Below, in pieces: positions 1 to 50,491 of a stretch of 64,000 nt of DNA. The stretch covers positions 64,001-128,000 of the forward strand of contig CBDFIQ010000001.1 in NCBI GenBank assembly GCA_965248195.1, written 5' to 3'. A program made the translations under genes and the position numbers. Under the pieces are notes generated by a model. That model made no database searches. It worked only from the letters and a program-made list of their open reading frames with translations, and was not told the DNA's origin. This stretch comes from Longimicrobiales bacterium (lineage in GTDB: Bacteria > Gemmatimonadota > Gemmatimonadetes > Longimicrobiales > Gaopeijiaceae). The stretch's first letter is position 1, and the number at the start of each line of letters is the position of its first letter.

Positions 1-41
1 GAACAGGAGCGTATTTTGGAACGATTCTTCAAAGGAAGCGA

Positions 42-371: not shown

Positions 372-378
372 CGGGCGA

Positions 379-1858: not shown

Positions 1859-1868
1859 TCACTCCATT

Positions 1869-1923
1869 GCTCGATGTACGGCCCAGGGCTCGATGTACGG
1901 CCCATTGCCCAATGTAGGGCCAA
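1869..1923. repeat. 19-bp-period tandem repeat
   Basis: GCTCGATGTACGGCCCA at 1869 and 1888, degenerate third copy at 1907. Confidence 0.8.
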
Positions 1924-2002
1924 ATTACGGCCCTCGTACCCTTGATGTAACCCGCTACGCAGACTCTGGTAAGATGTTCCCCAAAAGTGGCTCGGTGAAG
2001 AA

Positions 2003-2686: not shown

Positions 2687-2689
2687 CGA

Positions 2690-3646
2690 TCAAAGATCCA
2701 CGAGGGAGGCCGGGTCCACGTTCCCGCCGCTTATGACCGCTACCACACCTCGTCCCTCCGTCTGGACAGCGCCGGTCATGAGCGCGGCCACGGTGGTGGC
2801 TCCGGAAAACTCCACCACCAATCTCTGCTGTCTGAACAGCAGCGAGGCGGCGCCGCGAATCGCGTCGTCATCCACGAGCACGACGTCATCCACGAACTCA
2901 CGGACGTGCTCGAACGTCAAGGTCCCGGCCCGCAGGGGCAGAAGGCCGTCCGCGATGGATTCACTCTGATCGAGCGTAACCGGCTCGCCGGCCTCGAGCG
3001 CCGCCTTCATGGCCGCACCGCCCGTCGGCTCCACCCCGAAGATCCGCACATCGGGCCGTAGCCGGCGCAGGGCCGCTGCGGTTCCGCTGCACAGCCCCCC
3101 ACCGCCGATGGGCACCAATACCGAATCGAACGCATCCCAATCCTCGGCGATCTCGAGCCCCACCGTTCCCTGACCCGCGATGATCCTCGGATCATCAAAG
3201 GGCGGGACCATCACGAGTTCCCGATCCTCGGCGATCGACTCTGCTTTAGCCTTTCGTTCAAGAGAGGTCGTCCCTTCCAGCACGACTTCGGCCTCCAACC
3301 GCTCCGCCCCATCCCGCTTTACCTGTGGTGACGAGCTCGGCATCACCACGACTGCCCGGGTGTCGTGCAGTCGAGCCGCCAACGCCACGGCCTGGGCATG
3401 ATTTCCGGACGAGTAGGTGATGACGCCCCTCGAGCGGACGTCGTCGGGGAGCTGCGCAACGAAGTTGTAAGCCCCGCGAAACTTGAAGGACCCCGTGCGC
3501 TGAAGAGATTCGAGCTTGAGTCGGACGTCGCCACCCAGCTCTCGGCTCAAAACGTCTGACGGATAGAGCGGCGTCCGTACAGCGACCGGACGCAGCCTCC
3601 CGTGGGCTCCCCGGATCGCCTCGAGTTCGACTAGCCCGTCACTCAC
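2690..3646 (-). CDS. threonine/serine dehydratase (PLP fold type II)
   Basis: [35 protein letters not shown]; probable GTG start at 3646 overlapping the gyrA end. Confidence 0.9.
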
Positions 3647-31042: not shown

Positions 31043-31188
31043 GCATAACGGTCCAGGCGCTCCCGACGCGGAGGTGAGCGTAGCTCACCGGAGTGTCCCG
31101 AAGGGCCGGGCCCGCGTCCATGGATAAGCCACACGCGTACGGCGCGAAAGCGCTCCATGAGGGCCCGAGCGGGAGCGCAGCGTTATGT
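31043..31188 (-). other. attC-like recombination site 1
   Basis: plus strand GCATAAC...GTTATGT cores with inner stem GCGCTCCCG/CGGGAGCGC. Confidence 0.8.
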
Positions 31189-31218
31189 GACGTGTAGCTG
31201 GCGGTCGAGCCGCACCGT

Positions 31219-32016
31219 TCAACCCATGCCGCTTGTGAAGCCGCCCATCAGGTCCACAGCTCCGTGCGTCACTCGGCCTCGGTTGAACACCCAGTCGATG
31301 AGAAGGAGGAAGATGCCGCTGACCCATGCGGCGTAACCGTAGCCGATGTAGCTGCCGGTCAGAAATGAGTAGAACCAGTCCTGAACGAAGAGGTAGCCGA
31401 TAATCGAGACGCCGGTGGCCGCGAGGAGAAGCCAGAGTGCCAGTCGAGCGGCTTCCGGCGCGGCACGCCCGGCGAACGAGGCGACGAAGACCATCAAGAA
31501 GAGGGCCGCGTTGATCCCGCTGAAGATCCGAAGATCGCGGACGAGGTCGGTGACGGCCTCGGAGTACCGACCCCGCGCCCAGGACAGGGCGGTTTCGGAA
31601 CCTCGCTCCAACAACGAGACCTGAAACGCTCCCAACTCGTTGATCATCGCCGCCAACGTGTCTGTTGACATGCAGTTGTAGTGACAGAGGCTCGCCAAGG
31701 CGTCTGCGAGTCGCGTGCTGAGTCCCGCGCTCAGAGCACTTCGCAATGTGTCCGCGCGATCGGAGAAGACCTCGGCCAAGGCACCGAGTCGACCCGAACT
31801 CATTACTGAATCCAGTTGGCTGAACCTCACATCTACTTCGGCCGTGACGCGTTCCACGACATAGTCATGAGCGCGCGTCTCGAGGCTCCCCGGGAAGAGC
31901 CATGCTAGCGCGAAGCAGGCGGAGAACAGGAGCGAGCCAGCCCCGGCTATTGCACGAAGGCCCGGGTCGGCGGCAGCAAGGCCCCGACCGCGCGAGCCCT
32001 CCGACTGATCAGCCAT
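31219..32016 (-). CDS. cassette: hypothetical multi-TM membrane protein
   Basis: ORF fills the interval between att sites; cassette ends complementary at 14/17 nt. Confidence 0.75.
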   Translation of the reverse strand: MADQSEGSRGRGLAAADPGLRAIAGAGSLLFSACFALAWLFPGSLETRAHDYVVERVTAEVDVRFSQLDSVMSSGRLGALAEVFSDRADTLRSALSAGLSTRLADALASLCHYNCMSTDTLAAMINELGAFQVSLLERGSETALSWARGRYSEAVTDLVRDLRIFSGINAALFLMVFVASFAGRAAPEAARLALWLLLAATGVSIIGYLFVQDWFYSFLTGSYIGYGYAAWVSGIFLLLIDWVFNRGRVTHGAVDLMGGFTSGMG

Positions 32017-32105
32017 GGCGATCTCTGAAGCTGGATGGGCGGACAGATGCTATATGTCAATATTACATGTCACTGTTACATGTCATATGGGGGATGCTAC
32101 GTGTC

Positions 32106-32198
32106 ACTTAACGTTCAGAGGTTGCCGGCGCGGCGCCTCCGGCGCCGTGCTCTCCGGAGCGAACATAGTGAGCGTAGGCGGCAACCTACTTGTTATGA
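32106..32198 (-). other. attC-like site 2
   Basis: ACTTAAC...GTTATGA; stem AGGTTGCCG/CGGCAACCT; near-identical to site 3. Confidence 0.85.
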
Positions 32199-32220
32199 GT
32201 CGTGCGACCGATTGCACAAC

Positions 32221-32607
32221 TCAATCGTCGATGCCAAGCAAGATATCGGCGGGGATCCCAAGGAGGCGCCTCAGTCCCTCAACCTGAGCCTTGGAAAGTT
32301 CTCGTTTGCCATTCAGGAAGTCCGATACGCGGCTCTTTCCACCCATCACCTGATCGAGATCCGAGCGGTCCAGTTCCTTCTGCTCCAGCATGAACGTCAC
32401 GGCCTGCTGGGGCGTCACCGAACCCATGGGGTAACGCTCGTCCTCGTAGTGCTCCACCAATACCGAGAGGAATTCCAGCCGGTCGTAGCCCTCACTCCCA
32501 GGCTCGACGTCCTCGTCTACCAGTTGTTCGACCTCCGCAATCGCGGCCTCATACTCCGCGTCGCTCCTCAAGACATGTGGCTTCGAGAAGTCCAGTACCG
32601 TTGTCAT
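32221..32607 (-). CDS. higA: cassette: HigA-type antitoxin (HTH)
   Basis: LEFLSVLVEHYE...KSRVSDFLNGKRELSK; downstream of the toxin. Confidence 0.85.
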   Translation of the reverse strand: MTTVLDFSKPHVLRSDAEYEAAIAEVEQLVDEDVEPGSEGYDRLEFLSVLVEHYEDERYPMGSVTPQQAVTFMLEQKELDRSDLDQVMGGKSRVSDFLNGKRELSKAQVEGLRRLLGIPADILLGIDD

Positions 32608-32626
32608 AATGCGTCTCCTCCCGCGC

Positions 32627-32929
32627 TCACAGCGCTCCTTCAATCGACTTCCGGTCGTACTCCTCATGCGTCAGCACGTGACGGACGTACACTCGTCTGA
32701 GATCGTATCGCATATCGACGACCAATCGATACTTGTTCCCACCAATGTTGAAGATCGTCCGACGCGCACCTAGAAAGCTCGCCGTCGGAAAGTCCGCCCG
32801 TAGCTCGTGGGGCGATCGATAGTCTTGCGACTTGATGATCCGGTACCACGCATCCAGTGGAGCCTCAGCGTCAGCGTGTTTCTCGGCGAACTGGCGTAAA
32901 GGCCTCCGCGAGATGATCCGCACCGCCAC
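32627..32929 (-). CDS. higB: cassette: HigB family toxin
   Basis: RIISRRPLRQF...LDAWY...FNIGGNKYRLV...LTHEEYD. Confidence 0.9.
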   Translation of the reverse strand: MAVRIISRRPLRQFAEKHADAEAPLDAWYRIIKSQDYRSPHELRADFPTASFLGARRTIFNIGGNKYRLVVDMRYDLRRVYVRHVLTHEEYDRKSIEGAL

Positions 32930-33022
32930 TCCCCACCAAACAAGTTCCTGGATCGGAAATATACATTACCAACATGGGAACATCGTCACCTGAGGTCAAC
33001 TCCAGTCCGTAGGGAGCATGAC

Positions 33023-33115
33023 GCATAACGTTCAGAGGTTGCCGGCGCGGCGCCTCTGGCGCCGTGTCCTCCGGAGCGAACGTAGTGAGCGCAGGCGGCA
33101 ACCGCACTGTTATCG
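33023..33115 (-). other. attC-like site 3
   Basis: GCATAAC...GTTATCG; stem GGTTGCCG/CGGCAACC. Confidence 0.85.
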
Positions 33116-33148
33116 GACGGCGCTACCTTATCGCCAATCGCACCGGTC

Positions 33149-33229
33149 TTTAAACGAACTCGGCTGCTCTCCGCGGGCGCAGCACGCGACCCTCACGTTA
33201 TACGCGACAGTAGCAATCGCTTGTTATGC
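33149..33229 (-). other. degenerate attC-like site 4
   Basis: TTTAAAC...GTTATGC; its inner end GTTATGCGGCG is the exact complement of CGCCGCATAAC at 34152-34162. Confidence 0.6.
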
Positions 33230-33233
33230 GGCG

Positions 33234-33306
33234 ATCCACCTGGATTAGCTCTTCGTGACGGGCGCGAGGCCGTGGAGCCCGCTTCCACGAGAGCTAGTCA
33301 TTATCC
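33234..33306 (-). other. decayed att-like hairpin with both cores mutated
   Basis: AGCTCTTCGTG...CACGAGAGCT stem with the same 6/4-nt spacing to ATCCACC and ATTATCC. Confidence 0.45.
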
Positions 33307-33314
33307 GACCACGG

Positions 33315-34028
33315 TCACGTGCAGGCACCGGACCTGAGAAGGAGCAAATGCTCGCGTCCGGGGACATCGATAAGGTGCTCTGAATTACTGAGACTGAAAC
33401 CCGGTACAGGAGTTAGCAGGCGATTACCGGGCTCGCAGTTCGTAAGGTTGGTCGTTCGGACTTGGCCAACGATCGGGATCTCCAGACACCGCCCGTTCTG
33501 ACTAACCAGGAGAGTACCGGCATCATCGTAAGCTAGACTTAGGAACTTGACGCCAACCAGAGTGAAATCAAAAGCGGGAGTGACCCCGGCGGGCATACGA
33601 ACGGAGCCGTCTCGCCTCGCGAGCTCCGCACAACTCGGACACCCCACCACCAAGGCGTCCCCTTCTAGAACCAACGTGCCCGTTGATGTCAACACGATCG
33701 GTTCGCGCTCGTTCGAGAAGCCTGCCACGGCGACAGAAGCCTGACCAAGGGATGTGCAATACATGCCGCCGGTGTAGCCCGACACAACTACCTCCAACGA
33801 GTCTGGTGAAGACCCGTCAGGCACGCGCACGCGAAATTCCGAGTAACCCCTTGCGTCCTCAGGCCCACGGCTGATGAGAATCGAGGCGAGATCTCGCACG
33901 CTAATCTCCATCTCCACGCAGCCCAGTTCATCACCAGGGCACTCTGAAAGCAGGCTGACTTCTTGGGATGAGCTCGGATGTGCGACGCAAGCAAGCGTAC
34001 TGACCAGAAGTATCGAAGACGAACGCAT
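33315..34028 (-). CDS. cassette: hypothetical Cys-containing secreted protein
   Basis: ORF within complementary cassette ends; signal-like MRSSSILLVSTLAC; start uncertain. Confidence 0.6.
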   Translation of the reverse strand: MRSSSILLVSTLACVAHPSSSQEVSLLSECPGDELGCVEMEISVRDLASILISRGPEDARGYSEFRVRVPDGSSPDSLEVVVSGYTGGMYCTSLGQASVAVAGFSNEREPIVLTSTGTLVLEGDALVVGCPSCAELARRDGSVRMPAGVTPAFDFTLVGVKFLSLAYDDAGTLLVSQNGRCLEIPIVGQVRTTNLTNCEPGNRLLTPVPGFSLSNSEHLIDVPGREHLLLLRSGACT

Positions 34029-34192
34029 GCGCTTTCTCCAATCGCGGGCCCAGGGCGAGTCCATTCTTAACGGTATGGAGCCCTTCTGTGAGGAACAAGC
34101 GTGATTACCGAAGAACCAACGACAATCTGCCGAAGATGCACACCTGCCGACCGCCGCATAACTACTGATTCTACCACACCCCACTCGTTCTC

Positions 34193-35568
34193 GGTCAAGT
34201 CCCGATTTGTGTGTAAAAGCGGAGGAAGCTCCTCGCCTTCGGCTAGGCTGCTTGGGCGACCTCCTGTTTCTGGAGGAGTGAGAGGTCGAGGTAACGCCGG
34301 TCGCCCCAGACGTGTGTGGTCCTGAGTGCGACGGCCGTGATGAGCCTGAGGGCGCTGGCCCGGTCCGGGAAGGCGCCGGCGGCCTTGATCCTGCGTTTGA
34401 TCTCGCCGTGCAGCCGCTCGAGGCTGTTGGTGGTACGCAGCCGGGGCCAGTGCGCCTCGGGGAACGCGTAGAACTGCGTCGCTGCCCCGAAGCCCCGCTC
34501 CAGGACCTCCACGGCCTCGGGCAGCTCCTTCTTCCAGCGTGCGCCGAACTCGCCCAGGAGCTTCTTCGCCTCGGCGAGTCCGGATGTCTGGAAGATCACC
34601 GAGACCTCACGCGCCACGCGCTTGCGTAGGCGGTGGGGGACCCTCGCCCCCACATTACGCTGCAGATGGACCGTACACCTCTGACGGCGTGCCTCGGGCA
34701 GGAAGCGGCGGACCGCAGCTGCCAGGCCTGCGTGCTCATCGGCGATCACGAGCTCGACACCGCCGAGGCCGCGGTCCTGGAGTTGCTCGAGGAGCTCCGA
34801 CCAGCTCTGCTGCGACTCCTCAGCGCCCAGCGTGACGGCCAGGAGCCGTCGGTGACCCTCAGGGCCCACTGCATACGCCACGAGCGCACTCACGTTCTCG
34901 ACTTTGCGGGCCCAGCGGGCGTCCAAGAACGTGGCGTCCAGGTACAGATAGGGGTGAGGCCCCTCGATCGGCGCACGGCGCAGCCCTTCCACGGCCTCGT
35001 CGAGCCGTTTTGCCACACGACTCACCGTCGAGCGCCCAACACGCTCGCCCATCAGCGCCTCGGTGACGTCGCCCATCTTGCGCTGTGACACGCCGCTCAC
35101 ATACGCCTCGACCATCATCTCGTCGAGCTCGGGGCTCCTGCGCTGGTAGCGGCCGATCACGTCGGCCGGCGAACCGTTGTCCCGGCTCCGGGGCATGGCG
35201 ACCTCGATCTGCCCCAGGCTCGTCAGCAGCCGCCTCAGGTATGTGCCGTTCCTATGGTCCTTCCGGCTTCCCACCCGCTCGAAGCGGCGTGCACCTACCA
35301 TGGCCTTCAGCTCCTCTTCCAGCACCATCTCGAGCGTCAGCCGGATCGCGCCTTGAAACAGCTCGCGCAAATCATCGCGTAGCTCGTCTTGCGTGGCCCG
35401 ACCGATCTCCACAATCTCTTGCATCGGAAGCTCCTCTCCGGTTCCGAGCCTGCTCTGCAGACCCGGACTCCCGGGTTCATGTGACAGTGAACAACAACAG
35501 AGGAGCTTCCGTTTTTCTTTCCCTCCTGTCCAGCTTATCCGCTTTTACACAAATCTAGGGACACTACC
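34193..35568 (-). mobile_element. IS256-family insertion sequence, copy 1 (1376 bp)
   Basis: imperfect ~31-bp terminal IRs (GGTCAAGTCCCGATTTGTGTGTAAAAGCGGA / GGTAGTGTCCCTAGATTTGTGTAAAAGCGGA); 9-bp TSD CTCGTTCTC at 34184-34192 and 35569-35577. Confidence 0.95.
34243..35424 (-). CDS. IS256 family DDE transposase
   Basis: RNGTYLRRL, GVSQRK, YLYLDA, IADEH.GL, QRCTVH, TTNSLER. Confidence 0.95.
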   Translation of the reverse strand: MQEIVEIGRATQDELRDDLRELFQGAIRLTLEMVLEEELKAMVGARRFERVGSRKDHRNGTYLRRLLTSLGQIEVAMPRSRDNGSPADVIGRYQRRSPELDEMMVEAYVSGVSQRKMGDVTEALMGERVGRSTVSRVAKRLDEAVEGLRRAPIEGPHPYLYLDATFLDARWARKVENVSALVAYAVGPEGHRRLLAVTLGAEESQQSWSELLEQLQDRGLGGVELVIADEHAGLAAAVRRFLPEARRQRCTVHLQRNVGARVPHRLRKRVAREVSVIFQTSGLAEAKKLLGEFGARWKKELPEAVEVLERGFGAATQFYAFPEAHWPRLRTTNSLERLHGEIKRRIKAAGAFPDRASALRLITAVALRTTHVWGDRRYLDLSLLQKQEVAQAA

Positions 35569-35585
35569 CTCGTTCTCGCGCTGTC

Positions 35586-35739
35586 GTCTAACGTTCTAGA
35601 GTTCCGAACCGGCGCGTCCGCATGCGCACCGGTTCAGCTCTCTTCACTGACTTCCTGCACTGCTTCCTGGCTCACCACCGTTCGCGCCGGTTTCTCCGGA
35701 GCGGCCACAGGCCGCGTAGGCGGAACTCGTTTGTTAGGC
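35586..35739 (-). other. attC-like site 5
   Basis: GTCTAAC...GTTAGGC; stem GAGTTCCG/CGGAACTC. Confidence 0.85.
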
Positions 35740-35773
35740 GCTGCGCGCTCCAGGTCACCAGACCAAGCCTCAT

Positions 35774-36265
35774 TCACGACCCTTTTGGATCAAGGACCCG
35801 ATAGGGCACCCCAATCCACGCGCCGGTTGAATCGGTCCGGAGAAAGAACCGAACCTCGCATTCCCGCTCGAAGAGTCTGAAGAGGGGGATCCCTTCGAAT
35901 TCCCAACTGACCCTTACGACATCCGACTGCCCAGCGTCTAGCACGAAGGGCCCATAGGCCTCGGCCCCGGTCGAGAAGGTCCTCGCAGTGAAGACCTCAG
36001 TCCCCGCCGCGAGAGCGATTGAGTCAATCGCCACTGGGACGAGCGTTGGGTTTTCGAACCGGATCCGAACAGAGGCCCATTCGTTGCCGACTAGTCCACC
36101 AATTCGTCCGGTTTCCGCGACGATTAGACCAACCCTCCCAACCCATGTGGCAGAATCAGTTTGGGTCCATTCGGCTGGTGCGATGTCGATCCCTGGATCA
36201 CAGGCAAGGAGAGCGAGGATCATCCCGCTACACCCGATTCGACAGACTCGCCACCACCGCATCAT
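35774..36265 (-). CDS. cassette: hypothetical lipoprotein
   Basis: LALLAC lipobox-like; ends GTTAGGCGCT/AGCGCCTAAC perfectly complementary. Confidence 0.7.
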   Translation of the reverse strand: MMRWWRVCRIGCSGMILALLACDPGIDIAPAEWTQTDSATWVGRVGLIVAETGRIGGLVGNEWASVRIRFENPTLVPVAIDSIALAAGTEVFTARTFSTGAEAYGPFVLDAGQSDVVRVSWEFEGIPLFRLFERECEVRFFLRTDSTGAWIGVPYRVLDPKGS

Positions 36266-36296
36266 CCCCTGAAATTCTCCTTAGGTATTGAGTAGC

Positions 36297-36455
36297 GCCT
36301 AACGTTTCAGGACTCCGAACTGGCCCCGTCCAAAACGATTCCAGCCTCAGCTCTCTGCGAAGCAACACCTTCGTTCCCCGACCCCATTCTGCCCATGGGC
36401 CAGTTGGGTCGAAGGCCGCCGTCAGGCGGCCGAAGCCGGAGTCCGATTGTTATAT
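36297..36455 (-). other. attC-like site 6
   Basis: GCCTAAC...GTTATAT; stem GGACTCCG/CGGAGTCC. Confidence 0.85.
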
Positions 36456-36528
36456 GCCGTCGCTTCCAAGGGAGGTAGTCAGGCCAACCTACACGACCTT
36501 GCGAGTATGCGTCTCAGTCTTTGGGCTG

Positions 36529-37104
36529 CTACCACACCTTCCACCAAGGCCGTGACCTCCTCGGAGCAAGGTCGGCGAAGACCCTCGGGGCGGCCTTCAA
36601 GGGGCCCACTGGATCCTCGTCGTGCTTGAAGCCAGTGATCTCCTTCGCCGCGAGCAACGGCAAGTCGAACACGAAATCGACCTCGGCTCGACCTGCGTCC
36701 TCCTTCTTCTGCTCCTCGAATATGCCTTGGCGCAGTTCGTCAAAGCCCTCCGGCAGCTCCCCTCTCAGCTCGAGCTCGTACTTCCCCTTCTGGGCGTCAT
36801 GCGCCAGCCGCCAAACTTCGCTCCCGCCTTTCCAGTACGCGGCCGAGCTATACATGACGTGCTCCTCCACTGCGCAGGCGACACAGCTATACCGCTGAGA
36901 AAGGGACCTGAGGAACTCCGGGTCGACCAGACGATGGTCGCATCGCTGACCAACGAGCACGAACCATCCCCCTTCCAGGGCACAGCCTGAGATGGAGGCT
37001 TCGAAGTAGGGATCGGGCTCTGCACTCGGCTCGATACGTGCCTCTTGGAACAGCGCGGACGGATCCTCTGTCTCCACTGCAAGCCATGCGATGGCGTAGC
37101 CCAC
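36529..37104 (-). CDS. cassette: hypothetical protein ending in PWWKVW
   Basis: ORF between att sites with GGAGG RBS. Confidence 0.8.
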   Translation of the reverse strand: MGYAIAWLAVETEDPSALFQEARIEPSAEPDPYFEASISGCALEGGWFVLVGQRCDHRLVDPEFLRSLSQRYSCVACAVEEHVMYSSAAYWKGGSEVWRLAHDAQKGKYELELRGELPEGFDELRQGIFEEQKKEDAGRAEVDFVFDLPLLAAKEITGFKHDEDPVGPLKAAPRVFADLAPRRSRPWWKVW

Positions 37105-37175
37105 TATTCGGCCTCCCTGTTCAACTGCACGGGTCTAGTCATGGATCGCGTAGCCAAGCGCAGCCTGGCGATGGC

Positions 37176-37269
37176 GCATAACGTTCAAAGTTGCCGTCGC
37201 GGCTCGCGAACGCGAGCCGTGATCGTCGTAGTGAGCGCAGCGAACGAAGCCGGCAACTGTTTGTTAGCC
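37176..37269 (-). other. attC-like site 7
   Basis: GCATAAC...GTTAGCC; stem AGTTGCCG/CGGCAACT. Confidence 0.88.
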
Positions 37270-38563
37270 GGCGTCCGTAGCATCAAGACGACTCAGCAGT
37301 GCCACAACCTCCTCGGCAGTCGGCATCGGAGCGGATAGGACCTCGTCGATGACCACGCTTAGGTCCTGCCTGATCTCTTGCAGTAGTTCGTCGGCAAGGA
37401 GCACAGCAGTGGCTGAGAAGGACCGCCCGGCGTCCTCGAATTCGAGCCAGACGGGGTCCGTCACAAACGACCGTTGTTGAGGGATCTTGGTGAATCTGAC
37501 GTCTACGATCCAAGCACATCCGCGACGCAACGACGGGCGACACGGCTTCCCCCGCGATCCGCGTTCCGTAGGGCAGAATCCGCCGGAGCGACCCGTGCAA
37601 CGCCGTTCCCCTCGCCCGCAGTGGGTCGCCTGGAGGAGCAGGGGGCTTCGGTGGCCCATTCACGGTGGCCAGCGTGTGTACCTGCACACCAACCGGAAAG
37701 CTCACTCGAAGTGACACGTCACTAGCCGGCGCCGTCCCGTCGTTCCGCACCCTGAACCGCAGCGGTTGCAGGTGCACCGTGCTCTGGAGGTATTGATTCA
37801 GCGAATTCAGCCACGTGCCGACCGCTGCGAGATAGGTCGAGATTCTACGCTCCTCATCTCGCGCCTCCGGTGGAATGAGCGCAGGATCGAAGTTTTTGAA
37901 GCGCTTTGAGGGGTCGGGGTACTTGGCCTCTATAGAAGTCGCCACACCACGAATCAGAGAATCAGGGAAGCGGAGCGCCTGTCGCGGCCACTCGATTTCG
38001 AGTATCGGGCCCTCACCGAAATCCACGTGCAGGTCAGGGCGACGTGCCCTCTCCTTTTCAAGTTCGGCCTTTAGGCGCCTGATCTCATGGACCTGGGGGT
38101 CCTGCGATGCCGGTAGTGAGTAGCGAGACGGCATGTCCCACGCACGGATACCGACAAGCCCTGCGGCTATCCTGGGCGTAACATCATGAGTTACCAACCC
38201 CACCGCATGAGCTGACTCCTGCAGACGCAACCCGATCGCCACGAGGCGATGATCCGGGTTGGAGCGACTCAGGTTAAGCGCCTCGAAGTCCGCCTGAGGC
38301 TGCAGCGAGCAGAATTCTAGGAGCGTCCCATCGGACAGCTTGATCGGCGACCCTGACGACTGGATCTTCTCGATCAGCCCCAGGATCCGCCGAGCCCGGT
38401 CGCGGCGTCGCGCGTTCGGGTGGGCATCCTTGAGCTCGTCCAGCTCCTCGAGGTTGACCCAGGTCATCCTCACCGCTTCCACCTGACAACCTGCGACCTC
38501 CGCCCAGTCTGCGCCCTCGAAGTCGAAGTGCAGCAGGACGTTGGTATCGACGATGATATTCAT
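37264..38563 (-). pseudogene. cassette: PIN-domain protein with probable frameshift near the 3' end
   Basis: IIVDTNVLLH...EELDELK...NPDHRL...LVTHD PIN motifs; a plausible C-terminus in another frame stops at the TAA within the att core (37264). Confidence 0.7.
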
Positions 38564-38616
38564 ACCAACTCTCACTCCTCAATCACCCGTCTCCACCTCC
38601 TCACAGTGCGGATGCC

Positions 38617-38709
38617 GGCTAACGTTCCAGGGTGCCGACGCGGCTCGCAACGCGAGCCGTGTTCTCCGGAGCGAACGCAGTGAGCGCAGGCGGCACCCGT
38701 GTGTTAACT
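38617..38709 (-). other. attC-like site 8
   Basis: GGCTAAC...GTTAACT; stem GGGTGCCG/CGGCACCC. Confidence 0.88.
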
Positions 38710-39544: not shown

Positions 39545-39631
39545 AGTTAACGAATAAGGATTGTTTCCGAACTCTACGGAAGAGCGGGCAGGAAGGCGAG
39601 GTAGTGCGAGTGCGGAAAGGATCCGTTGAAC
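39545..39631 (-). other. att-like site at the 3' end of the recombinase/transposase module
   Basis: AGTTAAC...GTTGAAC; GGATTGTTTCCGAACTC pairs with GAGTGCGGAAAGGATCC (14/17). Confidence 0.7.
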
Positions 39632-39648
39632 GAAGCCGCTACGTGGTG

Positions 39649-41024
39649 GGTAGTGTCCCTAGATTTGTGTAAAAGCGGATAAGCTGGACAGGAGGGAAAG
39701 AAAAACGGAAGCTCCTCTGTTGTTGTTCACTGTCACATGAACCCGGGAGTCCGGGTCTGCAGAGCAGGCTCGGAACCGGAGAGGAGCTTCCGATGCAAGA
39801 GATTGTGGAGATCGGTCGGGCCACGCAAGACGAGCTACGCGATGATTTGCGCGAGCTGTTTCAAGGCGCGATCCGGCTGACGCTCGAGATGGTGCTGGAA
39901 GAGGAGCTGAAGGCCATGGTAGGTGCACGCCGCTTCGAGCGGGTGGGAAGCCGGAAGGACCATAGGAACGGCACATACCTGAGGCGGCTGCTGACGAGCC
40001 TGGGGCAGATCGAGGTCGCCATGCCCCGGAGCCGGGACAACGGTTCGCCGGCCGACGTGATCGGCCGCTACCAGCGCAGGAGCCCCGAGCTCGACGAGAT
40101 GATGGTCGAGGCGTATGTGAGCGGCGTGTCACAGCGCAAGATGGGCGACGTCACCGAGGCGCTGATGGGCGAGCGTGTTGGGCGCTCGACGGTGAGTCGT
40201 GTGGCAAAACGGCTCGACGAGGCCGTGGAAGGGCTGCGCCGTGCGCCGATCGAGGGGCCTCACCCCTATCTGTACCTGGACGCCACGTTCTTGGACGCCC
40301 GCTGGGCCCGCAAAGTCGAGAACGTGAGTGCGCTCGTGGCGTATGCAGTGGGCCCTGAGGGTCACCGACGGCTCCTGGCCGTCACGCTGGGCGCTGAGGA
40401 GTCGCAGCAGAGCTGGTCGGAGCTCCTCGAGCAACTCCAGGACCGCGGCCTCGGCGGTGTCGAGCTCGTGATCGCCGATGAGCACGCAGGCCTGGCAGCT
40501 GCGGTCCGCCGCTTCCTGCCCGAGGCACGCCGTCAGAGGTGTACGGTCCATCTGCAGCGTAATGTGGGGGCGAGGGTCCCCCACCGCCTACGCAAGCGCG
40601 TGGCGCGTGAGGTCTCGGTGATCTTCCAGACATCCGGACTCGCCGAGGCGAAGAAGCTCCTGGGCGAGTTCGGCGCACGCTGGAAGAAGGAGCTGCCCGA
40701 GGCCGTGGAGGTCCTGGAGCGGGGCTTCGGGGCAGCGACGCAGTTCTACGCGTTCCCCGAGGCGCACTGGCCCCGGCTGCGTACCACCAACAGCCTCGAG
40801 CGGCTGCACGGCGAGATCAAACGCAGGATCAAGGCCGCCGGCGCCTTCCCGGACCGGGCCAGCGCCCTCAGGCTCATCACGGCCGTCGCACTCAGGACCA
40901 CACACGTCTGGGGCGACCGGCGTTACCTCGACCTCTCACTCCTCCAGAAACAGGAGGTCGCCCAAGCAGCCTAGCCGAAGGCGAGGAGCTTCCTCCGCTT
41001 TTACACACAAATCGGGACTTGACC
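39649..41024 (+). mobile_element. IS256-family insertion sequence, copy 2 (1376 bp)
   Basis: same ends and identical transposase protein as copy 1, in opposite orientation; flanks ACGTGGTG/ACGTGGGG (7/8 TSD). Confidence 0.95.
39793..40974 (+). CDS. IS256 family DDE transposase
   Basis: protein identical to 34243-35424. Confidence 0.95.
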   Translation: MQEIVEIGRATQDELRDDLRELFQGAIRLTLEMVLEEELKAMVGARRFERVGSRKDHRNGTYLRRLLTSLGQIEVAMPRSRDNGSPADVIGRYQRRSPELDEMMVEAYVSGVSQRKMGDVTEALMGERVGRSTVSRVAKRLDEAVEGLRRAPIEGPHPYLYLDATFLDARWARKVENVSALVAYAVGPEGHRRLLAVTLGAEESQQSWSELLEQLQDRGLGGVELVIADEHAGLAAAVRRFLPEARRQRCTVHLQRNVGARVPHRLRKRVAREVSVIFQTSGLAEAKKLLGEFGARWKKELPEAVEVLERGFGAATQFYAFPEAHWPRLRTTNSLERLHGEIKRRIKAAGAFPDRASALRLITAVALRTTHVWGDRRYLDLSLLQKQEVAQAA

Positions 41025-41214
41025 ACGTGGGGCTATGGAGATTGGAAGGCCGTCGAACTGGCTCCGGATGGCCTGAGGCACGCGAGATGGTGGACGGAGC
41101 CACCGAAGAGAGTGGGGATCGGGCTCCGACACGACCATGTGGGAAGTGATGAAGGGGCTGTGGCCGACGTAGGCACAGTCGGGTCCATCGCCGCCGTTGA
41201 GGAACAGCCACGTA

Positions 41215-42423
41215 TCAGGATGCGACACGGTGGACCCATGGGTTCGGAGGAGGAGGTCGCCCGAGGACCTGCACACACTGTAGCACGCCCTTTCTACAGC
41301 TGGGACAGACGTGCAGATCACGAGGCCGTAGATCGAGGAGGATCTCATCGCCATCGAGGGACTCTGGTTGCGGATCGAGGGAGACTGCTGGCTGCCCGAG
41401 TGCCTCGCGAGAGCATGCGAGCAGTCGAGCGCGGCTGGCGTTGGCGAAGATCCCGTAGTAGCGGATACGCACGAAGCCCTTCGGTAAGACGTGTAGCAGG
41501 AAGCGACGGGCGAACTCGTGGAGGGGAAGCATGAGAGTCCGGGCCCTGCGACCTCGGTAGTCCTTGTAGCGGAAGCACACAGACTGGTCGTCTACGTGGA
41601 GCAGACGATGGTTCGAGATCGCGACTCGGTGGGTATAGCGAGCCAGGTACTCGAGAACGGGCTTCGGACCGTCGAAGGGGGGTTTGGCATAGACGACCCA
41701 CTCAGTCTGGCGAGCCGCGTTGAGGTGGCGCGCGAACGCCGCGCGTGAGCGGTAGCGGGCGAGGGCACCGTGCAACTCGAGGCTCCCGTCCCGAAACGCA
41801 TCCCAGAGTCCTGCGGTGAACTTTCCCCGGAACAAACGACTGAGCACGCGCACCGGCAGGAAGAAGCCCGGCCGACAAGGACGCCATGTACGGTCACCTT
41901 CCGCCAGGCCGCCCGCTGGGACAACGCAGTGTACGTGCGGATGATGGACCAGCGTCTGGCCCCAAGTATGCAGGACGGCGAAGAACCCGATCCGTGCGCC
42001 GAGATGCTTCGGGTTCAGGGCGACATCCTGCAGCGTCCGCCCCACGGTACGAAGCAGGAGACCGTAGAAAACGCGTGGGTTCTGCAGCGCCAACGGTGCC
42101 AGGCTCTGCGGCACAGTGAAGACGACGTGCGCGTAGGGCACAGGTAACACCTCGGCCTGGCGTGCCTCGAGCCAGTCCGCTTGGGCACTACCCTGGCACT
42201 TTGGACAGTGACGGTTGCGGCACGAGTTGTACGAGATCCTCCGGTGACCGCAGGCGTCGCAGGCGTCGATGTGACCACCCAGCCGTGCGGTTCGGCAGGC
42301 GGTGATCGCCTCGACGACCGCACGTTGCTCCCAACTCCATCTCGCCCCGGATCCCAGCGAGCGCGGCGCTTCGCGGTACTCTTGGAAGACCTCGGCAAGC
42401 TCGTGCCGGGGTCGCTTGGTCAC
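41215..42423 (-). CDS. IS91 family (HUH/Y2) transposase
   Basis: Zn-binding CxxC...SCRNRHCPKCQ; HVVFTVP; LHTWG..HPHVH (HUH); YLARY (Y2); IRYYG. Confidence 0.93.
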   Translation of the reverse strand: MTKRPRHELAEVFQEYREAPRSLGSGARWSWEQRAVVEAITACRTARLGGHIDACDACGHRRISYNSCRNRHCPKCQGSAQADWLEARQAEVLPVPYAHVVFTVPQSLAPLALQNPRVFYGLLLRTVGRTLQDVALNPKHLGARIGFFAVLHTWGQTLVHHPHVHCVVPAGGLAEGDRTWRPCRPGFFLPVRVLSRLFRGKFTAGLWDAFRDGSLELHGALARYRSRAAFARHLNAARQTEWVVYAKPPFDGPKPVLEYLARYTHRVAISNHRLLHVDDQSVCFRYKDYRGRRARTLMLPLHEFARRFLLHVLPKGFVRIRYYGIFANASRARLLACSREALGQPAVSLDPQPESLDGDEILLDLRPRDLHVCPSCRKGVLQCVQVLGRPPPPNPWVHRVAS

Positions 42424-43278
42424 CTACTCCGTTGGCTCGAACTCCGAGCTCAAGGCATCCAGAGGACTCTTAATCGAACGGAGCCGTGCCGTGGCCACGT
42501 GCGTGTAGATCGCCGTGGTCTGGAGCGCCCGGTGACCGAGCAGCGTTTGGATCATCCGCAGATCCGTGCCCGACTCCAGCAGGTGCGTCGCGTAGCTGTG
42601 ACGGAGCGTACGGGGTGTCACCCGCTTCGTGATCCCCGCTCGCGCACCGGCCGCCCCGATCACTCGTTGTACCGTCCGGCTCGTGAGCGGCTGGTCCGGA
42701 GCGCGTCCGTAGAACAGCAAGCTCCTTGGCCTGTACATACGCCAATATGCCCGCAGCGTCGCCAGCAACACGCCCGACAGGACCACCTGCCGGTCCTTGT
42801 CCCCCTTGCCGTGGCGCACGGTGATCACCATCCGGTCACTATCGATGTCGCGCACTTGCAGCCCCAGCACCTCGCTGGTCCTCAGCCCGCCACCGTACAG
42901 CGTCATTGCCATCGCCCGGTGCTTCAGGTTCCCTACCCCCTTGAGCAGACGTCCGACCTCCTCCGGGCTTAGCACCACCGGGTTGCGTCTCTTCTGTCGC
43001 GGGTAGGGGAGGTGGGGCAACAGCTCCGGCCGGTCCAGCGTCACACGGTACAGGAACCGCATTGCCCCCACCGCCTGCTTGAACGCCGAACGCGATACGT
43101 CCCGCTCCTCCTTCAGGTACCGCAGGTATCCGCGTATCTCTTCGCGGCCCAGCGTGTCCGGAGATCGCCCGAAGTGCTGCGCCATCTCGGCGACACGTCT
43201 GATGTAGATCGCCTGCGTGCGCTCTGCGTAGTTCCGGACCCTCAGATCCGTCAGCATCTTCTGCCGTAGCTCGCTCAT
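42424..43278 (-). CDS. tyrosine recombinase (IntI-like N-terminal SAM domain, no IntI-specific insertion)
   Basis: LYGGGLR, GKGDKDR, RTLRHSYATHLLE, LLGH, TAIYTHV; GAGGAG RBS before ATG 43278. Confidence 0.92.
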   Translation of the reverse strand: MSELRQKMLTDLRVRNYAERTQAIYIRRVAEMAQHFGRSPDTLGREEIRGYLRYLKEERDVSRSAFKQAVGAMRFLYRVTLDRPELLPHLPYPRQKRRNPVVLSPEEVGRLLKGVGNLKHRAMAMTLYGGGLRTSEVLGLQVRDIDSDRMVITVRHGKGDKDRQVVLSGVLLATLRAYWRMYRPRSLLFYGRAPDQPLTSRTVQRVIGAAGARAGITKRVTPRTLRHSYATHLLESGTDLRMIQTLLGHRALQTTAIYTHVATARLRSIKSPLDALSSEFEPTE

Positions 43279-43407
43279 CGGTCCCTCCTCGACTGGGTTG
43301 CGTTGGGGCACGCAACCTACTCGCCCAGTCCTCGGAACCTCGGCCCTACTCAGACACCGGAATCACCACCCACCGCGAGCCCTCACCACCCACCGCGTAG
43401 CGGTTTA

Positions 43408-43527
43408 GTTCAACGATTTCTTCCCGAACCATATCAGATTACCCGCCGACTCGCGATGCCATCACGACGGATGTCGCCTATGCTCGGCCAAGCCGGAACG
43501 TGTCGCCCTCCGGCCCAAACGTTATGG
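43408..43527 (-). other. poorly paired or hybrid att-like interval
   Basis: GTTCAAC and GTTATGG cores present but no long-range stem; GTTATGGGCCATCAC matches the far end of the HigBA cassette at 13/15. Confidence 0.5.
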
Positions 43528-43543
43528 GCCATCACGCCTCAAA

Positions 43544-43870
43544 CTAGGCCGGGGACTTCGCACCGCGTCCGCCAGGGTACCGTGGGATCTTCTTGAGGAC
43601 CTCGGCTTCTGACTTCCGCGCGTGGTAGAGGTCCCAAGCGAGTTGGAGATTGAGCCAGAAATCAGAGGAAGTTCCGAAATACTGAGATAGGCGAAGCGCA
43701 GTACTTGGGGTAACTCCGCGACGTCCATTAACGATCTCGTTCACACGCTGGTAGGGAACGGCGATCGCATCTGCCAGCTGCCTCTGGGTGATCCCCATCG
43801 GTGCTAGGAACTCCTCCAGGAGCATCACTCCGGGATGCGTCGGGAGGCGATGAGTGGGCACACGAACCAT
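43544..43870 (-). CDS. higA: cassette: HigA/VapI family antitoxin
   Basis: PTHPGVMLLEEFL..GITQRQLA..VNEIVNGRRGVT..ALRL..FWLNLQ. Confidence 0.92.
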   Translation of the reverse strand: MVRVPTHRLPTHPGVMLLEEFLAPMGITQRQLADAIAVPYQRVNEIVNGRRGVTPSTALRLSQYFGTSSDFWLNLQLAWDLYHARKSEAEVLKKIPRYPGGRGAKSPA

Positions 43871-43878
43871 AAGAAGCC

Positions 43879-44172
43879 TCAGTGGTAATCGACGACCTGT
43901 ACGTCCTCTGGGCCGTTCGGCGTCCATCGGAAACAGATCCGGTATTGATCGTTGATTCGAATGCTATGCTCCCCTTTGCGGTCACCCTTCAGGGCCTCGA
44001 GTCGGTTTCCTGGAGGGATCCGGAGATCCTCAAGAATAGCGGCGGCAGCAAGCGCATCTAGCTTTTTCCCACCCTGCCTCCAGAGGGACTGAGGAAGCGT
44101 CCTTCGGGCCAGTTTCGTGGGGCGCCCATAGAAGAGATCCTCTGTCGCTTCGTCCTTGAAGCTTCGAATCAT
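43879..44172 (-). CDS. higB: cassette: HigB (RelE/ParE superfamily) toxin
   Basis: MIRSFKD...DLRIPPGNRLEALKGDRKGEHSIRINDQYRICF..DYH. Confidence 0.92.
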   Translation of the reverse strand: MIRSFKDEATEDLFYGRPTKLARRTLPQSLWRQGGKKLDALAAAAILEDLRIPPGNRLEALKGDRKGEHSIRINDQYRICFRWTPNGPEDVQVVDYH

Positions 44173-44235: not shown

Positions 44236-44290
44236 CGATAACGGTCCAGGCGCTCCCGACGTGGAGCGAAGCGTAGGTCCGCGGAGCGGC
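44236..44290 (-). other. truncated attC-like half-site marking the array end
   Basis: ATAACGGTCCAGGCGCTCCCGACG (44238-44261) is identical to 31045-31068 of site 1; partner arm not found. Confidence 0.65.
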
Positions 44291-44482
44291 CAGGCCCTCG
44301 TTGGGGTCAACGGCGGCGCGAAGTGAGCCGTCCTTGGCGCGGCAACCAACGACCGCGACAAAGTCACGGACCCTAAACCCATAACGGCTCCAGCCACGGC
44401 GGACCGAAGCGTTGGGACCAGTCTTCAGGTTCTCCAGCCGTTCGCACGTGATCCAAGTCGCGCACGGGTGGCGACTCTGACA

Positions 44483-48121: not shown

Positions 48122-50491
48122 ATGCTCAGGTCAACGCACTCTGCGGCCGCCGTCGTGGCGGCCCTGGCGGCTGGCTGGCTGGCCAGCGACGTCGCGGCGC
48201 AGAGCGCGACGGGGTATCGCGCCTTGCTCGACGAGTACTGCGTCACCTGTCACAACCAGCGCACGGTCGACGACCGGAGTGAGCAGATCACCCCCCTGAG
48301 GTCACAGCTCCGCGCGGTCGGTCTGGCGCTCGACGCGCTGGAGCTGTCCGCGGTGGCTACCGACGCCGCCCACTGGGAGCCGGTCGTGCGCAAGCTGCGG
48401 GCCGGGCTGATGCCGCCCGCCGGGCGGCGGCGTCCCGACCAGGCGACGCTCGACGAGTTCCGCGCTTGGCTCGAGACCGAGCTCGATGAGGCAGCCGCGG
48501 CCCGTCCGGACCCGGGACGGACAGCCACGTTCCACCGGCTGAACCGGGCCGAGTACAGCAACGCCATCCGCGACTTGCTGGCGCTGGAGATCGACGTCGA
48601 CGACTTCCTTCCGGCAGACGACGCCGGCTTCGGGTTCGACAACATCGGCGGCGTGCTGCGCATGTCGCAGTCGTTGCTGGAGCGTTATCTGGACGCATCA
48701 CGCACCATCAGCCGGCTCGCGGTCGGTAGCCCACCGCCGGCGCCGTTCTCCCAGACGTTCCGGACCGCTCAGGACGAGCAGCAGCATGAGCGGGCCGGCG
48801 AGCTGCCGTTCGGCACGCGTGGCGGGATGCTCGTGTCCTACCAGTTTCCGCTCGATGCCGACTACGACCTGAGTATCCAGCTGAGCGGCACCCGCGGGTT
48901 GCGGGAGGAGCACCGGCTCGAGGTGACGGTCGATGGCGAGCCGGTCGAGCTGCCCACCCTGGAGCCCGGTTCCACCATCGAGCTGCGGGTGCCGGTGGCG
49001 GCCGGACGGCGCGACATCGGGGTGGCGTTCTATCGCAATCCACCGGTGCTCGTCGAGCAGGTCCGGGAACGCTTTCAGAATCCGCGCACATCAGGGAACA
49101 GCGGCGGGCCGGGCGGCTCGATGCCGTTCGTCACTAGCCTCACCATCGCTGGTCCGTACGACGCTCGCGGTCCAGGCAGTACGCCGAGCCGTGACCGGAT
49201 CTTCGTCTGCCGACCGGCGACGGTCTCCGAGGAGACGGGATGCGCCCGCACGATCCTGTCCGGTCTGGCCCGGCAGGCCTATCGTCGGCCGGTCACCGAT
49301 GCCGACATCGAGGTTCTGCTCGAGTTCTACGAGATGGGCCGAGCCAATGGCGCGCACTTCGAGAGCGGCGTCGAGCTGGCGCTCAGGCGGTTGCTCGTCA
49401 GCCCAGAGTTCCTGGTCCGCATCGAGGCGGACCCATCAGGCGTTGCGCCCGACACTCCCTACAAGGTGACTGACATCGAGCTGGCCTCCCGCTTGTCGTT
49501 CTTCCTTTGGAGCAGCATCCCGGACGCCGAGCTGCTTGATGTGGCCGAGCGAGGAGCGCTCAGCCAGCCGGCGGAGCTCGAGCGGCAAGTGCGTCGCATG
49601 ATCGCCGATCCTCGCTCGAAGGCGCTGACCACCAACTTTGCCGGCCAGTGGTTGCAGCTCAGGAACCTCGCGACCGTGATTCGGCCGGGTGATCCCTACT
49701 CGCTCGCGTTCGATGAGACGCTACGTCAGGCGATGATCACCGAGACGGAGCTGTTCTTCGACCACGTGGTACGACAGGACCGCGGGGTCCTCGAGCTGCT
49801 GACCGCCGACTACACGTATCTGAACGGACGCCTGGCCGGGCACTACGACATCCCCAACGTCCAAGGCGCACACTTCCGGCGGGTCGTGTTCCTGGCTAAT
49901 AGCCCCCGCGGGGGGCTGCTGGCACACGGCAGCATCCTGACCCTGACCTCGCACGCGATCCGGACGTCGCCGGTGCTGCGTGGCAAGTGGATCCTGAACA
50001 CCATCCTCGGCACACCGCCGCCCGATCCGCCGCCGAACGTCCCGGCGCTCGTCGACCAGAAGACCCAGGCCAAGTTGGGAACGATGCGTGAGCGGATGGA
50101 TGCCCACCGGTCCAACCCGGTGTGTGCGGCGTGCCACGCGATGATCGACCCGGCCGGGTTCGCTCTCGAGGGCTTCGACGCCATCGGCCGGTCCCGGGTG
50201 GTCGACGAGTCGTTCAACGACCTCGACACCTCCGGGACGCTCCCCGACGGTACCGCGTTCGACGGCGCAGCGGAGCTCCGGGCCGCATTGGTCGCGCACC
50301 CGGAGCGGTTCGTCGGCACCGTCACCGAGAAGCTGATGACCTACGCGCTGGGTCGGGGCCTCGACTACTACGATATGCCGGCGGTCCGCCGTATCGTTCG
50401 AGAAGCGGAGACCGAGGGCTACGGCATGCAGTCGATCATCGTCGGCATCGTAAACAGCTATCCGTTCCTGCACAGGAGATCCGAGTCATGA
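48122..50491 (+). CDS. DUF1592/DUF1588-type cytochrome c domain protein
   Basis: CVTCH and CAACH; RLNRAEY; ELASRLSFFLWSSIPD; TSPVLRGKW. Confidence 0.9.
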   Translation: MLRSTHSAAAVVAALAAGWLASDVAAQSATGYRALLDEYCVTCHNQRTVDDRSEQITPLRSQLRAVGLALDALELSAVATDAAHWEPVVRKLRAGLMPPAGRRRPDQATLDEFRAWLETELDEAAAARPDPGRTATFHRLNRAEYSNAIRDLLALEIDVDDFLPADDAGFGFDNIGGVLRMSQSLLERYLDASRTISRLAVGSPPPAPFSQTFRTAQDEQQHERAGELPFGTRGGMLVSYQFPLDADYDLSIQLSGTRGLREEHRLEVTVDGEPVELPTLEPGSTIELRVPVAAGRRDIGVAFYRNPPVLVEQVRERFQNPRTSGNSGGPGGSMPFVTSLTIAGPYDARGPGSTPSRDRIFVCRPATVSEETGCARTILSGLARQAYRRPVTDADIEVLLEFYEMGRANGAHFESGVELALRRLLVSPEFLVRIEADPSGVAPDTPYKVTDIELASRLSFFLWSSIPDAELLDVAERGALSQPAELERQVRRMIADPRSKALTTNFAGQWLQLRNLATVIRPGDPYSLAFDETLRQAMITETELFFDHVVRQDRGVLELLTADYTYLNGRLAGHYDIPNVQGAHFRRVVFLANSPRGGLLAHGSILTLTSHAIRTSPVLRGKWILNTILGTPPPDPPPNVPALVDQKTQAKLGTMRERMDAHRSNPVCAACHAMIDPAGFALEGFDAIGRSRVVDESFNDLDTSGTLPDGTAFDGAAELRAALVAHPERFVGTVTEKLMTYALGRGLDYYDMPAVRRIVREAETEGYGMQSIIVGIVNSYPFLHRRSES

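Follow-up and report, generated by a model that had tools for sequence, protein, structure and literature searches.

The window studied here, 64,000 nt long (G000:C1:64001-128000, from the 4.86-Mb genome G000 of a Longimicrobiales bacterium), carries a tyrosine recombinase gene and an IS91-family transposase gene side by side among integron-type gene cassettes. Both genes share the strand of the neighbouring cassette open reading frames (ORFs), and the module that they form lies between a HigBA toxin-antitoxin cassette and the next cassette, in cassette orientation. An initial annotation of this DNA had taken the interval 39545-43527 for one module packaged as a cassette, and had suggested that it might be a self-mobile integron-like platform or, as a fallback, a parasite that targets att sites. 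The analysis described below indicates that the module is probably one copy of a widespread, site-specific element of ~2.48 kb, which belongs to a subgroup of IS91, has its own recombinase and mimics a gene cassette at att-type G|TT sites.

The window proteins were assigned to domains using Pfam and NCBIfam with the models' own cut-offs (NF033538, 125 bits; TIGR02249, 265 bits). The gene at 41215-42423 (minus strand) encodes an IS91-family Y2 HUH transposase, with matches to Y2_Tnp (PF04986; 8.4e-67) and Zn_Tnp_IS91 and an NF033538 score of 425.6 bits. Its HUH motif (H163-V-H165) and its YxxxY motif (Y259/Y263) are unchanged across eight aligned relatives, and a PDB sequence search with the protein returned no match. 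The GTG start of this gene directly adjoins the stop codon of the recombinase gene, which lies in an ORF at 42424-43311 (minus strand) that matches Phage_integrase (3.4e-37) and Phage_int_SAM_4. Since relatives begin at the methionine of MSELR..., the ATG at 43278 is the likely start, giving a predicted protein of 284 amino acids. The extents, strand and families originally given for the two genes (42424-43278 and 41215-42423) agree with these matches. The only Pfam domains on the module are Phage_integrase, SAM_4, Y2_Tnp and Zn_Tnp_IS91; Pfam detected neither a DEDD transposase nor a reverse transcriptase.

To judge from its profile matches, the recombinase is Xer/IntI-like but is not IntI. 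Three observations lead to this assignment. Its score with TIGR02249, the IntI model, is below the cut-off (215.7 bits, in two stretches at profile positions 4-177 and 237-315); positions 178-236 of the profile are skipped in this match, as are chain residues 179-244 of VchIntIA, so that the additional domain specific to IntI (between patches II and III) is absent; and a PDB sequence search scored XerA (4a8e, 127.7 bits) about equal to VchIntIA (2a3v, 127.2 bits). All ten aligned relatives also match TIGR02249, and XerA is an equally good match. The catalytic residues R144, K169, R237, H260 and Y269 are kept in the alignment of relatives.

The upstream (5') end of the element (43385-43414, minus strand) contains the terminal inverted repeat TAAACCGCTACGCGGTGGGTGG and opens with the core GTTGAAC (43414-43408), the junction with the flank being G|TT (43414|43413). 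Homology to a second genomic copy (copy 2, the window copy being copy 1) ends exactly at 43414. On the other side, the region 3' of the transposase gene (41025-41214, minus strand) holds a CCATAG motif (CTATGG on the plus strand, 41033-41038), and is followed by an IS256-family insertion sequence of 1,377 bp (39648-41024, plus strand; transposase at 39793-40974, Pfam Transposase_mut 5.5e-100 and NF033543). The insertion lies inside the left inverted repeat of the module, with an imperfect 8-bp duplication (ACGTGGTG / ACGTGGGG), and cuts the transposase gene and the CCATAG motif off from the left repeat and the hairpin described below. The genes and ends of the interval first read as one module do belong to it, but 39648-41024 is an unrelated insertion that had been overlooked.

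The remnant of the downstream terminal inverted repeat (39625-39647, minus strand) ends in the core GTTCAAC (39631-39625). Aligned with the reverse complement of 43391-43414, positions 39625-39648 agree at 21 of 24, and the inverted ends of copy 2, which like the element L009 in another genome has no IS256 at this spot, match at 28 of 31. Reading outward, both ends show GCGG-N4-GTTCAAC followed by 12 nt ending in CCG. Both the inverted ends with their GTTGAAC/GTTCAAC cores and this outward layout had been noted at the outset and were confirmed. The repeat leads into an attC-like hairpin (39545-39631, minus strand) made up of GTTCAAC, a 5' arm, a loop, a 3' arm, the spacer TTATTC and G|TTAAC. 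Within its outer core GTTAAC (39550-39545), TTAAC forms the start of the next cassette, whose ORF begins at 39541. In the manner of a cassette, GTTGAAC (43414-43408) pairs with GTTCAAC (39631-39625), and G|TT is found at both junctions. The hairpin differs from the attC sites of the local array in the sequence of its arms and in its spacers, which are 0-2 nt and 4-7 nt versus 5 nt and 7 nt. With a (G)TTGAAC start and a GTTCAAC-hairpin-spacer-G end, the joined ends of the element constitute an attC-like site with cores RYYYAAC and GTTRRRY.

Conserved ends and a terminal hairpin in the element family

Using the recombinase as query, we collected 22 loci from a genome collection and 79 from a metagenome collection (L-numbered). 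The recombinase-transposase pair is present at 13 of the 22 genome-collection loci and at 84 of 95 loci overall, the remainder being mostly contigs that end early. By their record titles the hosts are Gemmatimonadota, Chloroflexota, Planctomycetota, Desulfobacterota-type Smithella, Gammaproteobacteria and Aegiribacteria. Matches were also obtained on plasmids of Bradyrhizobium, Sinorhizobium and Clostridium, where a tyrosine recombinase (annotated in one record as 'integron integrase') stands beside an IS91 family transposase. Identity to the window transposase is 42% or more within this subgroup, compared with 27-31% for enterobacterial IS91 and IS1294. The length of the element is near-constant across the family at ~2.3-2.6 kb, that of the window element being ~2.48 kb.

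Alignment of the flanks of homologous pairs revealed the conserved ends and the terminal hairpin that the initial annotation had anticipated, but at many loci no adjacent array was seen. The consensus of the upstream end is [G/A]TTGAAC [G/T]AA.CCGC-N-GCGG. The downstream end reads CCATAG, ~20 nt, GCGG.TT. GTTCAA[C/T], the hairpin, a spacer of 4-7 nt and then GTT or ATT, and in most relatives CCATAG is found ~20-25 nt before GTTCAA[C/T].

The hairpin was assessed in a set that began with 43 loci that combine the gene pair with the upstream motif and extend 120 nt or more downstream. Loci with an aligner inverted-repeat score below 20 were left out (L041, L093, L102, L019, L026, L055 and L064), though L019 and L055 show the element end by eye, and so were L104 and L031, for which no end was located, L080, whose end is of another kind, and L033, whose contig runs out 16 nt inside the hairpin. 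Addition of the window copy and L017 gave a final set of 34, every one of which has an anchored hairpin starting no more than 6 nt from the core. Pairing of the arms was then compared in 17 lineages, selected for 5' arms no more than 70% identical to one another. Arms from the same locus pair with a mean of -15.1 kcal/mol, compared with -7.6 kcal/mol for arms taken from different loci and -6.7 kcal/mol for shuffled arms, and only 1.8% of the cross-locus pairs reach the own-arm mean. On this comparison, it is the structure of the hairpin that is conserved and not its sequence.

The triplet that follows the hairpin is identical to the first triplet of the element at 33 of the 34 loci (32 of 33 where both were observed, the first triplet of L017 having been assumed). 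At the exception, L094, the element starts with ATT and GTT follows the hairpin, a mismatch consistent with an exchange point behind the first base. The hairpin is 86% identical between copies 1 and 2, the outer flanks of which differ, and a homologous hairpin is found in L009. L017 and L018 have the same hairpin sequence as far as GTTA, and it is also identical in seven copies present in G009, a closed genome of the same genus. We also considered that the hairpin might be part of a target attC, with the element placed at its R'' box; this was rejected for this lineage, in which the hairpin travels with the element.

Joined copies of the element occur naturally. The metagenome contig L052 contains a perfect head-to-tail dimer of an ATT-type element (33-5154), and the junction between the two copies forms one long stem from the outer repeat, the cores and the inner hairpin (-45.6 kcal/mol, z -5.4; 0/200 shuffles, fold significance being judged throughout by comparison with 200 shuffles). 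L110 and L078 start with the end of a preceding copy, and L033 is circularly permuted.

A home-made scan for AAC...GTT, which is noisy (658 hits genome-wide) and was used only for the cluster in the window and for a glance at flanks, detects the hairpin at 7 of 20 loci (L013, L014, L021, L034, L035, L093 and L097). In elements of the rhizobial type (L032, L040, L042, L046, L070, L110 and others) both flanks are conserved, as GAATCG-N-GGG | ATTCCC...GATTCA, which suggests that their target is a specific palindromic repeat.

Target sites and the relation to known mobile elements

The seven copies in G009 are identical over 2,493 bp and all diverge right after GTTAG, while L017 and L018 diverge after GTTA. 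Five of the seven are preceded by a related sequence, GTACA[GA]T...|GTT, and one of these five lies ~230 nt downstream of the only intI of that genome, on the same strand. We compared the region downstream of intI in four relatives. In G009 and G119 the module occupies a GTTAGRY site ~200-250 nt away, and in G145 and G042 the same site is empty (...GTTAGA GTTAGAC; ...CATTA GTTAGGT) and is followed by an ORF. The empty attI-like site has the form ...CAGTACAGTTGAAA GTTAGAT. Going by these four regions, in this bacterial family an attI-like site and co-oriented cassettes come after intI, and the element takes the first slot.

The target of the window copy is of another class. Its target-side flank (43415-43487, minus strand) is a conserved unit ending GATATGGTTCGGGAAGAAATC|G, whose G|TT is the insertion point of the element. 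The empty form of this class is ...GGTTCGGGAAGAAATC GTTAT; sites of the class are empty (GTTAT or GTTAC) in G009, G069 and G093 and occupied by a module in L132 and L133. In G093 the ~75-nt unit lies 150 nt past a truncated recombinase gene, and the unit resembles the 3' arm of the hairpin. For these two reasons it may represent a relic, namely the 3' end of an earlier element. The ~75-nt unit, GAGCATAGGCGAC...GATATGGTTCGGGAAGAAATC GTT, also recurs in related genomes (L120, L121 and L122).

Canonical IS91 elements have a single transposase gene and an origin end distinct from the terminator end, neither with long inverted repeats, and they insert beside GTTC/CTTG. The module resembles IS91, IS801, IS1294 and their ISCR relatives in its Y2 HUH transposase with an N-terminal zinc-binding domain; rolling-circle mobility would be expected of it, and tandem copies are found in a relative. 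It differs in that it has two genes, a recombinase gene having been added, together with terminal inverted repeats of 28-31 bp (28/31 in copy 2), complementary 7-nt cores and a terminal hairpin, and in that it inserts at extended att-type sites (G|TTAG/G|TTAT). The single E. coli IS91 that we examined has a transposase 29% identical to that of the module, no recombinase gene and none of the end features of the module, and it adjoins CAAG.

ISfinder catalogues members of IS91 with an upstream integrase ORF, such as ISShvi3. These members have the same gene pair as the module. A passage in PMC9229058 describes ISShvi3 beside attC as making 'a new gene cassette structure'. The openly searchable literature, that is, without subscription journals and the text of ISfinder and TnPedia, gave no account of the conserved hairpin, the G|TT boundaries, the occupancy of attI or the target rule. 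The Replitron paper and the ICTE report hold nothing on the pairing of recombinase and transposase, and PMC7923331 and PMC11023631 refer to IS91 or IS911 in passing only. The coupling of the two enzymes had been thought uncharacterised, which agrees with the literature searched save for the passing remark on ISShvi3.

With integron cassettes the element shares G|TT boundaries, an imperfect-palindrome site of its own, RYYYAAC/GTTRRRY cores and first bases that complement its own inner core, and modules are found at the attI-like site and inside arrays, in cassette orientation. In contrast to cassettes, it has two mobility genes, another spacing of the arms, an extra inverted repeat outside the cores and a lineage with ATT cores; it also occurs where no integron was seen, and its recombinase scores below the IntI cut-off and lacks the extra domain.

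Filamentous phages of the CTX type couple an HUH rolling-circle protein with tyrosine recombination on a folded single-strand hairpin and form tandem copies; they use the XerCD of the host, with dif as target. The element is similar in coupling an HUH enzyme with a tyrosine recombinase, in its tandem copies and in the folded single-strand step that we infer for it, but it encodes its own recombinase and targets att-type GTT cores. By analogy, the closest mechanistic precedents would be attC x attI recombination in integrons and the single-strand integration of CTX phages.

To our knowledge, the parasites known to home to attC comprise two kinds only, IS1111-attC and the group IIC-attC introns. 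These resemble the module in being mobile elements specialised on integron recombination sites, but their enzymes are unrelated to those of the module, which mimics a cassette and does not interrupt attC. Both are mentioned in PMC9229058.

Mechanism and rival explanations

A mechanism can be proposed in which the Y2 enzyme would nick near the conserved subterminal motifs and peel off, or replicate, one strand, giving a circle or a head-to-tail multimer. The hairpin site would then form by folding of the joined ends, and the element's recombinase would insert the element by strand exchange at G|TT. Where a host IntI is present, it may be able to perform the same insertion.

The conserved ends and hairpin and the occupancy of att sites at G|TT together argue that the module is a cassette mimic targeting att sites and not an integron platform. 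The fallback proposal of a parasite of att sites fits these data, as relatives occupy both attI-like and att-like sites at their G|TT. Several observations weigh against our reading. At the His-II position the recombinase has Arg in the window copy and in L010, where the other eight aligned proteins have His. The window hairpin has a stem mismatch and folds at -7.8 kcal/mol (z -1.15), with 25 of 200 shuffles as good. Because this copy folds no better than shuffled sequence, the support for the hairpin is drawn from relatives; the GTTCAAC/GTTAAC cores of the att-like site initially assigned to 39545-39631, and its link to the next cassette, stand. The insertion of the window copy is at the G|TT of a conserved unit of uncertain nature, and since the attC of the HigBA cassette has no recognisable 3' half, the data do not assign this copy to the R' box of an attC. 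The upstream flanks of many relatives lack a hairpin. Evidence from sequencing runs consists of assembled contigs matched to the region, not of raw reads; no back-joined junction was listed among them, an absence that carries no weight for or against. In one study, two sediment runs (X1 and X2) contain one contig each that joins 39574 to 43432, with sides of 27 and 35 nt, and so represent a module-free form. This joint differs from the product predicted for excision at G|TT, and the difference is unexplained. Which enzyme carries out which step is itself inferred, as are circles in this organism and a single-strand substrate. Finally, occupancy of attI would also be expected from the action of host IntI, and the element's recombinase therefore need not be the integrase.

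The last point leads to an alternative in which the element is a passive selfish cassette: the hairpin would be a working attC, IntI would move the unit, and the recombinase would do other work, for instance the resolution of multimers. The cores fit RYYYAAC / GTTRRRY, the boundaries are at G|TT, and modules sit at the attI-like site beside intI in two of the four relatives. IntI above the cut-off was found in four of five distant genomes with GTT-type modules versus none of 14 control genomes. Within a family sample of 201 genomes, in which a module-type recombinase was defined by at least 55% identity, the enrichment is modest (7 of 14 genomes with the module versus 42 of 187 others), to be read with the proviso that kin genomes are not independent and many are incomplete. 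Conversely, no IntI above the cut-off was seen in the other 7 of these 14 module-bearing genomes, again with many incomplete, which counts against a passive cassette and against our own reading alike. The gene pair and hairpin are moreover kept in lineages with ATT / GTTCAAT cores, contrary to the triplet rule of IntI, and the ATT lineages reside on rhizobial and Clostridium plasmids, on which no integron was seen (the search did not extend to the whole genomes). G000 has two copies at different sites and a dead intI, and the spacers of the hairpin are unlike those of local attC. We consider this alternative unlikely.

A second alternative, which we hold to be rather improbable, attributes mobility to the transposase only. 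The hairpin would be a rolling-circle origin or terminator as in Helitrons, GTT would reflect the target choice of the transposase, and the recombinase would be accessory. HUH enzymes often use hairpins, and according to PMC4778049 the 3' hairpin of Helraiser is a terminator. In addition, rolling-circle read-through would yield tandem dimers, the transposase could have its sites at the CCATAG and CCGC-N-GCGG motifs close to the ends, and the E. coli IS91 examined ends beside CAAG, in keeping with the fixed tetranucleotide target of canonical IS91. That same IS91, however, has neither a GTTCAAC-hairpin-GTT end nor a long inverted repeat, and the architecture goes with the recombinase-linked subgroup defined by transposase identity. 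Perfectly complementary 7-nt cores and the exchange point indicated by L094 look like the core site of a tyrosine recombinase, and the targets are extended conserved sequences and not a bare tetranucleotide.

We regard as very improbable the platform envisaged in the initial annotation, in which a non-IntI recombinase would capture or shuffle neighbouring cassettes and the Y2 enzyme would supply single strands or mobilise them. It is true that the recombinase gene of copy 1 is intact and IntI-like, in an array without a working IntI, and that the AAC/GTT triplets of the element's site recur in the array cores (TAAC...GTTA). However, the same gene pair and ends are common where no array is seen, on rhizobial and Clostridium plasmids and on many metagenome contigs, and no examined relative has captured cassettes between its ends, as the near-constant length of the family and of the seven G009 copies illustrates. 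The neighbouring attC are of another sequence type and spacing, both copies are damaged by IS256, which in copy 1 splits the left end, and the array itself is explained by a former integron, as set out below.

If our preferred reading of an att-targeting mimic is taken further, these elements might represent a third and very widespread class of integron-associated mobile DNA, namely autonomous mimics. Their HUH enzyme would generate single-stranded DNA circles, the joined ends of which would fold into an attC-like site, and their own IntI-like recombinase, devoid of the extra domain of IntI, would insert the circles at attI, attC or look-alike G|TT sites. We put this forward as a tentative proposal that we think less likely than not. 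If it were true, IntI and folded-strand attC recombination could have arisen from an ancestor of which the recombinase clade is a living relative, and the first position of integrons could be seeded by the elements or contested by them. As far as we know, IntI is regarded as the one enzyme family that serves integrons, with folded attC strands as its substrate. The element described here copies the cassette format, repeatedly takes the attI position and carries both an IntI-like recombinase and a strand-producing HUH enzyme. Should its recombinase be the integrase, it would be a natural self-contained system for single-strand site-specific recombination without the special domain of IntI. Some integrase-less cassette clusters and 'orphan' att-like hairpins could thereby be explained, and the element would be a mobile unit able to block or reshuffle the expression-proximal slot of integrons.

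The cassette array, IS256 and sequencing runs

The neighbouring integrase-less cassette array (CALIN) occupies 31043-38709 on the minus strand and was delimited by repeat families D1-D9 and by folds. It has seven attC sites of the form TAAC...GTTA (31043-31188, 32106-32198, 33023-33115, 35586-35739, 36297-36455, 37176-37269 and 38617-38709, all minus strand). Each lies downstream of a minus-strand ORF, and every cassette opens with bases complementary to its own inner core. The end-complementarity rule that had been ascribed to the module and its neighbours is thus the rule of all seven. This array was the only clear cluster in the home-made AAC...GTT scan of the genome.

Upstream of the module lies the HigB/HigA toxin-antitoxin cassette (43544-44160, with higA at 43544-43927; minus strand; Pfam HTH_3 and HigB-like_toxin). 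The inner core of its attC is CCATAAC (43521-43527), and the 3' half was not found in folds or comparisons. A HigBA homologue in G086 (80% identical) has a complete canonical attC within a four-site array. A partial attC-like site at 44238-44400 has a 3' half that is 83% identical over 54 nt to 31045-31098, and a clear 5' half was not found. Folds of the ORFs beyond it (MBL-fold, F420H2-dependent quinone reductase-like and HpcH-like aldolase) gave no attC.

There is no intI in the window, and to this extent the description of the array as lacking IntI holds. The genome, however, does retain a 5'-truncated intI fragment (C1:1112697-1113260), and a genome-wide search for a canonical intI yielded only this dead remnant, ~1 Mb away (within C1:1112697-1113290). 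It encodes ~190 C-terminal amino acids that include the IntI-specific insert, follows the end of an aldo/keto reductase ORF in the same frame and has an IS256 directly at its 3' end. An attI-like region that is empty and free of intI was found separately, at C1:~48,420-48,630, ~15.6 kb to the left of the window. It ends ...CAGTACAGTTGAAA GTTAGATGG and is 81% identical over 193 nt to the sequence after intI in G009. As far as can be read from these remains, a former integron, represented by the dead intI remnant and the separate attI-like site, accounts for the origin of the array.

More than 100 near-identical full-length copies of the IS256 are present in the 4.86-Mb genome, which looks like a recent burst. 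An identical copy in inverted orientation lies at 34193-35569 with the duplication GAGAACGA. IS256 has interrupted both copies of the module as well as the intI remnant, and it has probably scattered the former integron. In copy 2, one IS256 lies within the transposase gene and another within the recombinase gene. The right end of this copy is displaced to C1:1062757-1062983, presumably through recombination between IS256 copies. The window copy is likewise damaged, and is mainly a well-preserved example of the element type.

In the sequencing run of the source organism, one contig spans 41027-43413 and breaks at the IS256 boundary and at the boundary of the element. Among the run contigs, a joint of 39649 to 41027, resting on sides of only 20 nt, corresponds to the form free of IS256. 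Parts of the module are found at high identity in sediment and marine runs from several studies, and in sediment runs of several studies the share of the sampled words is ~0.3.

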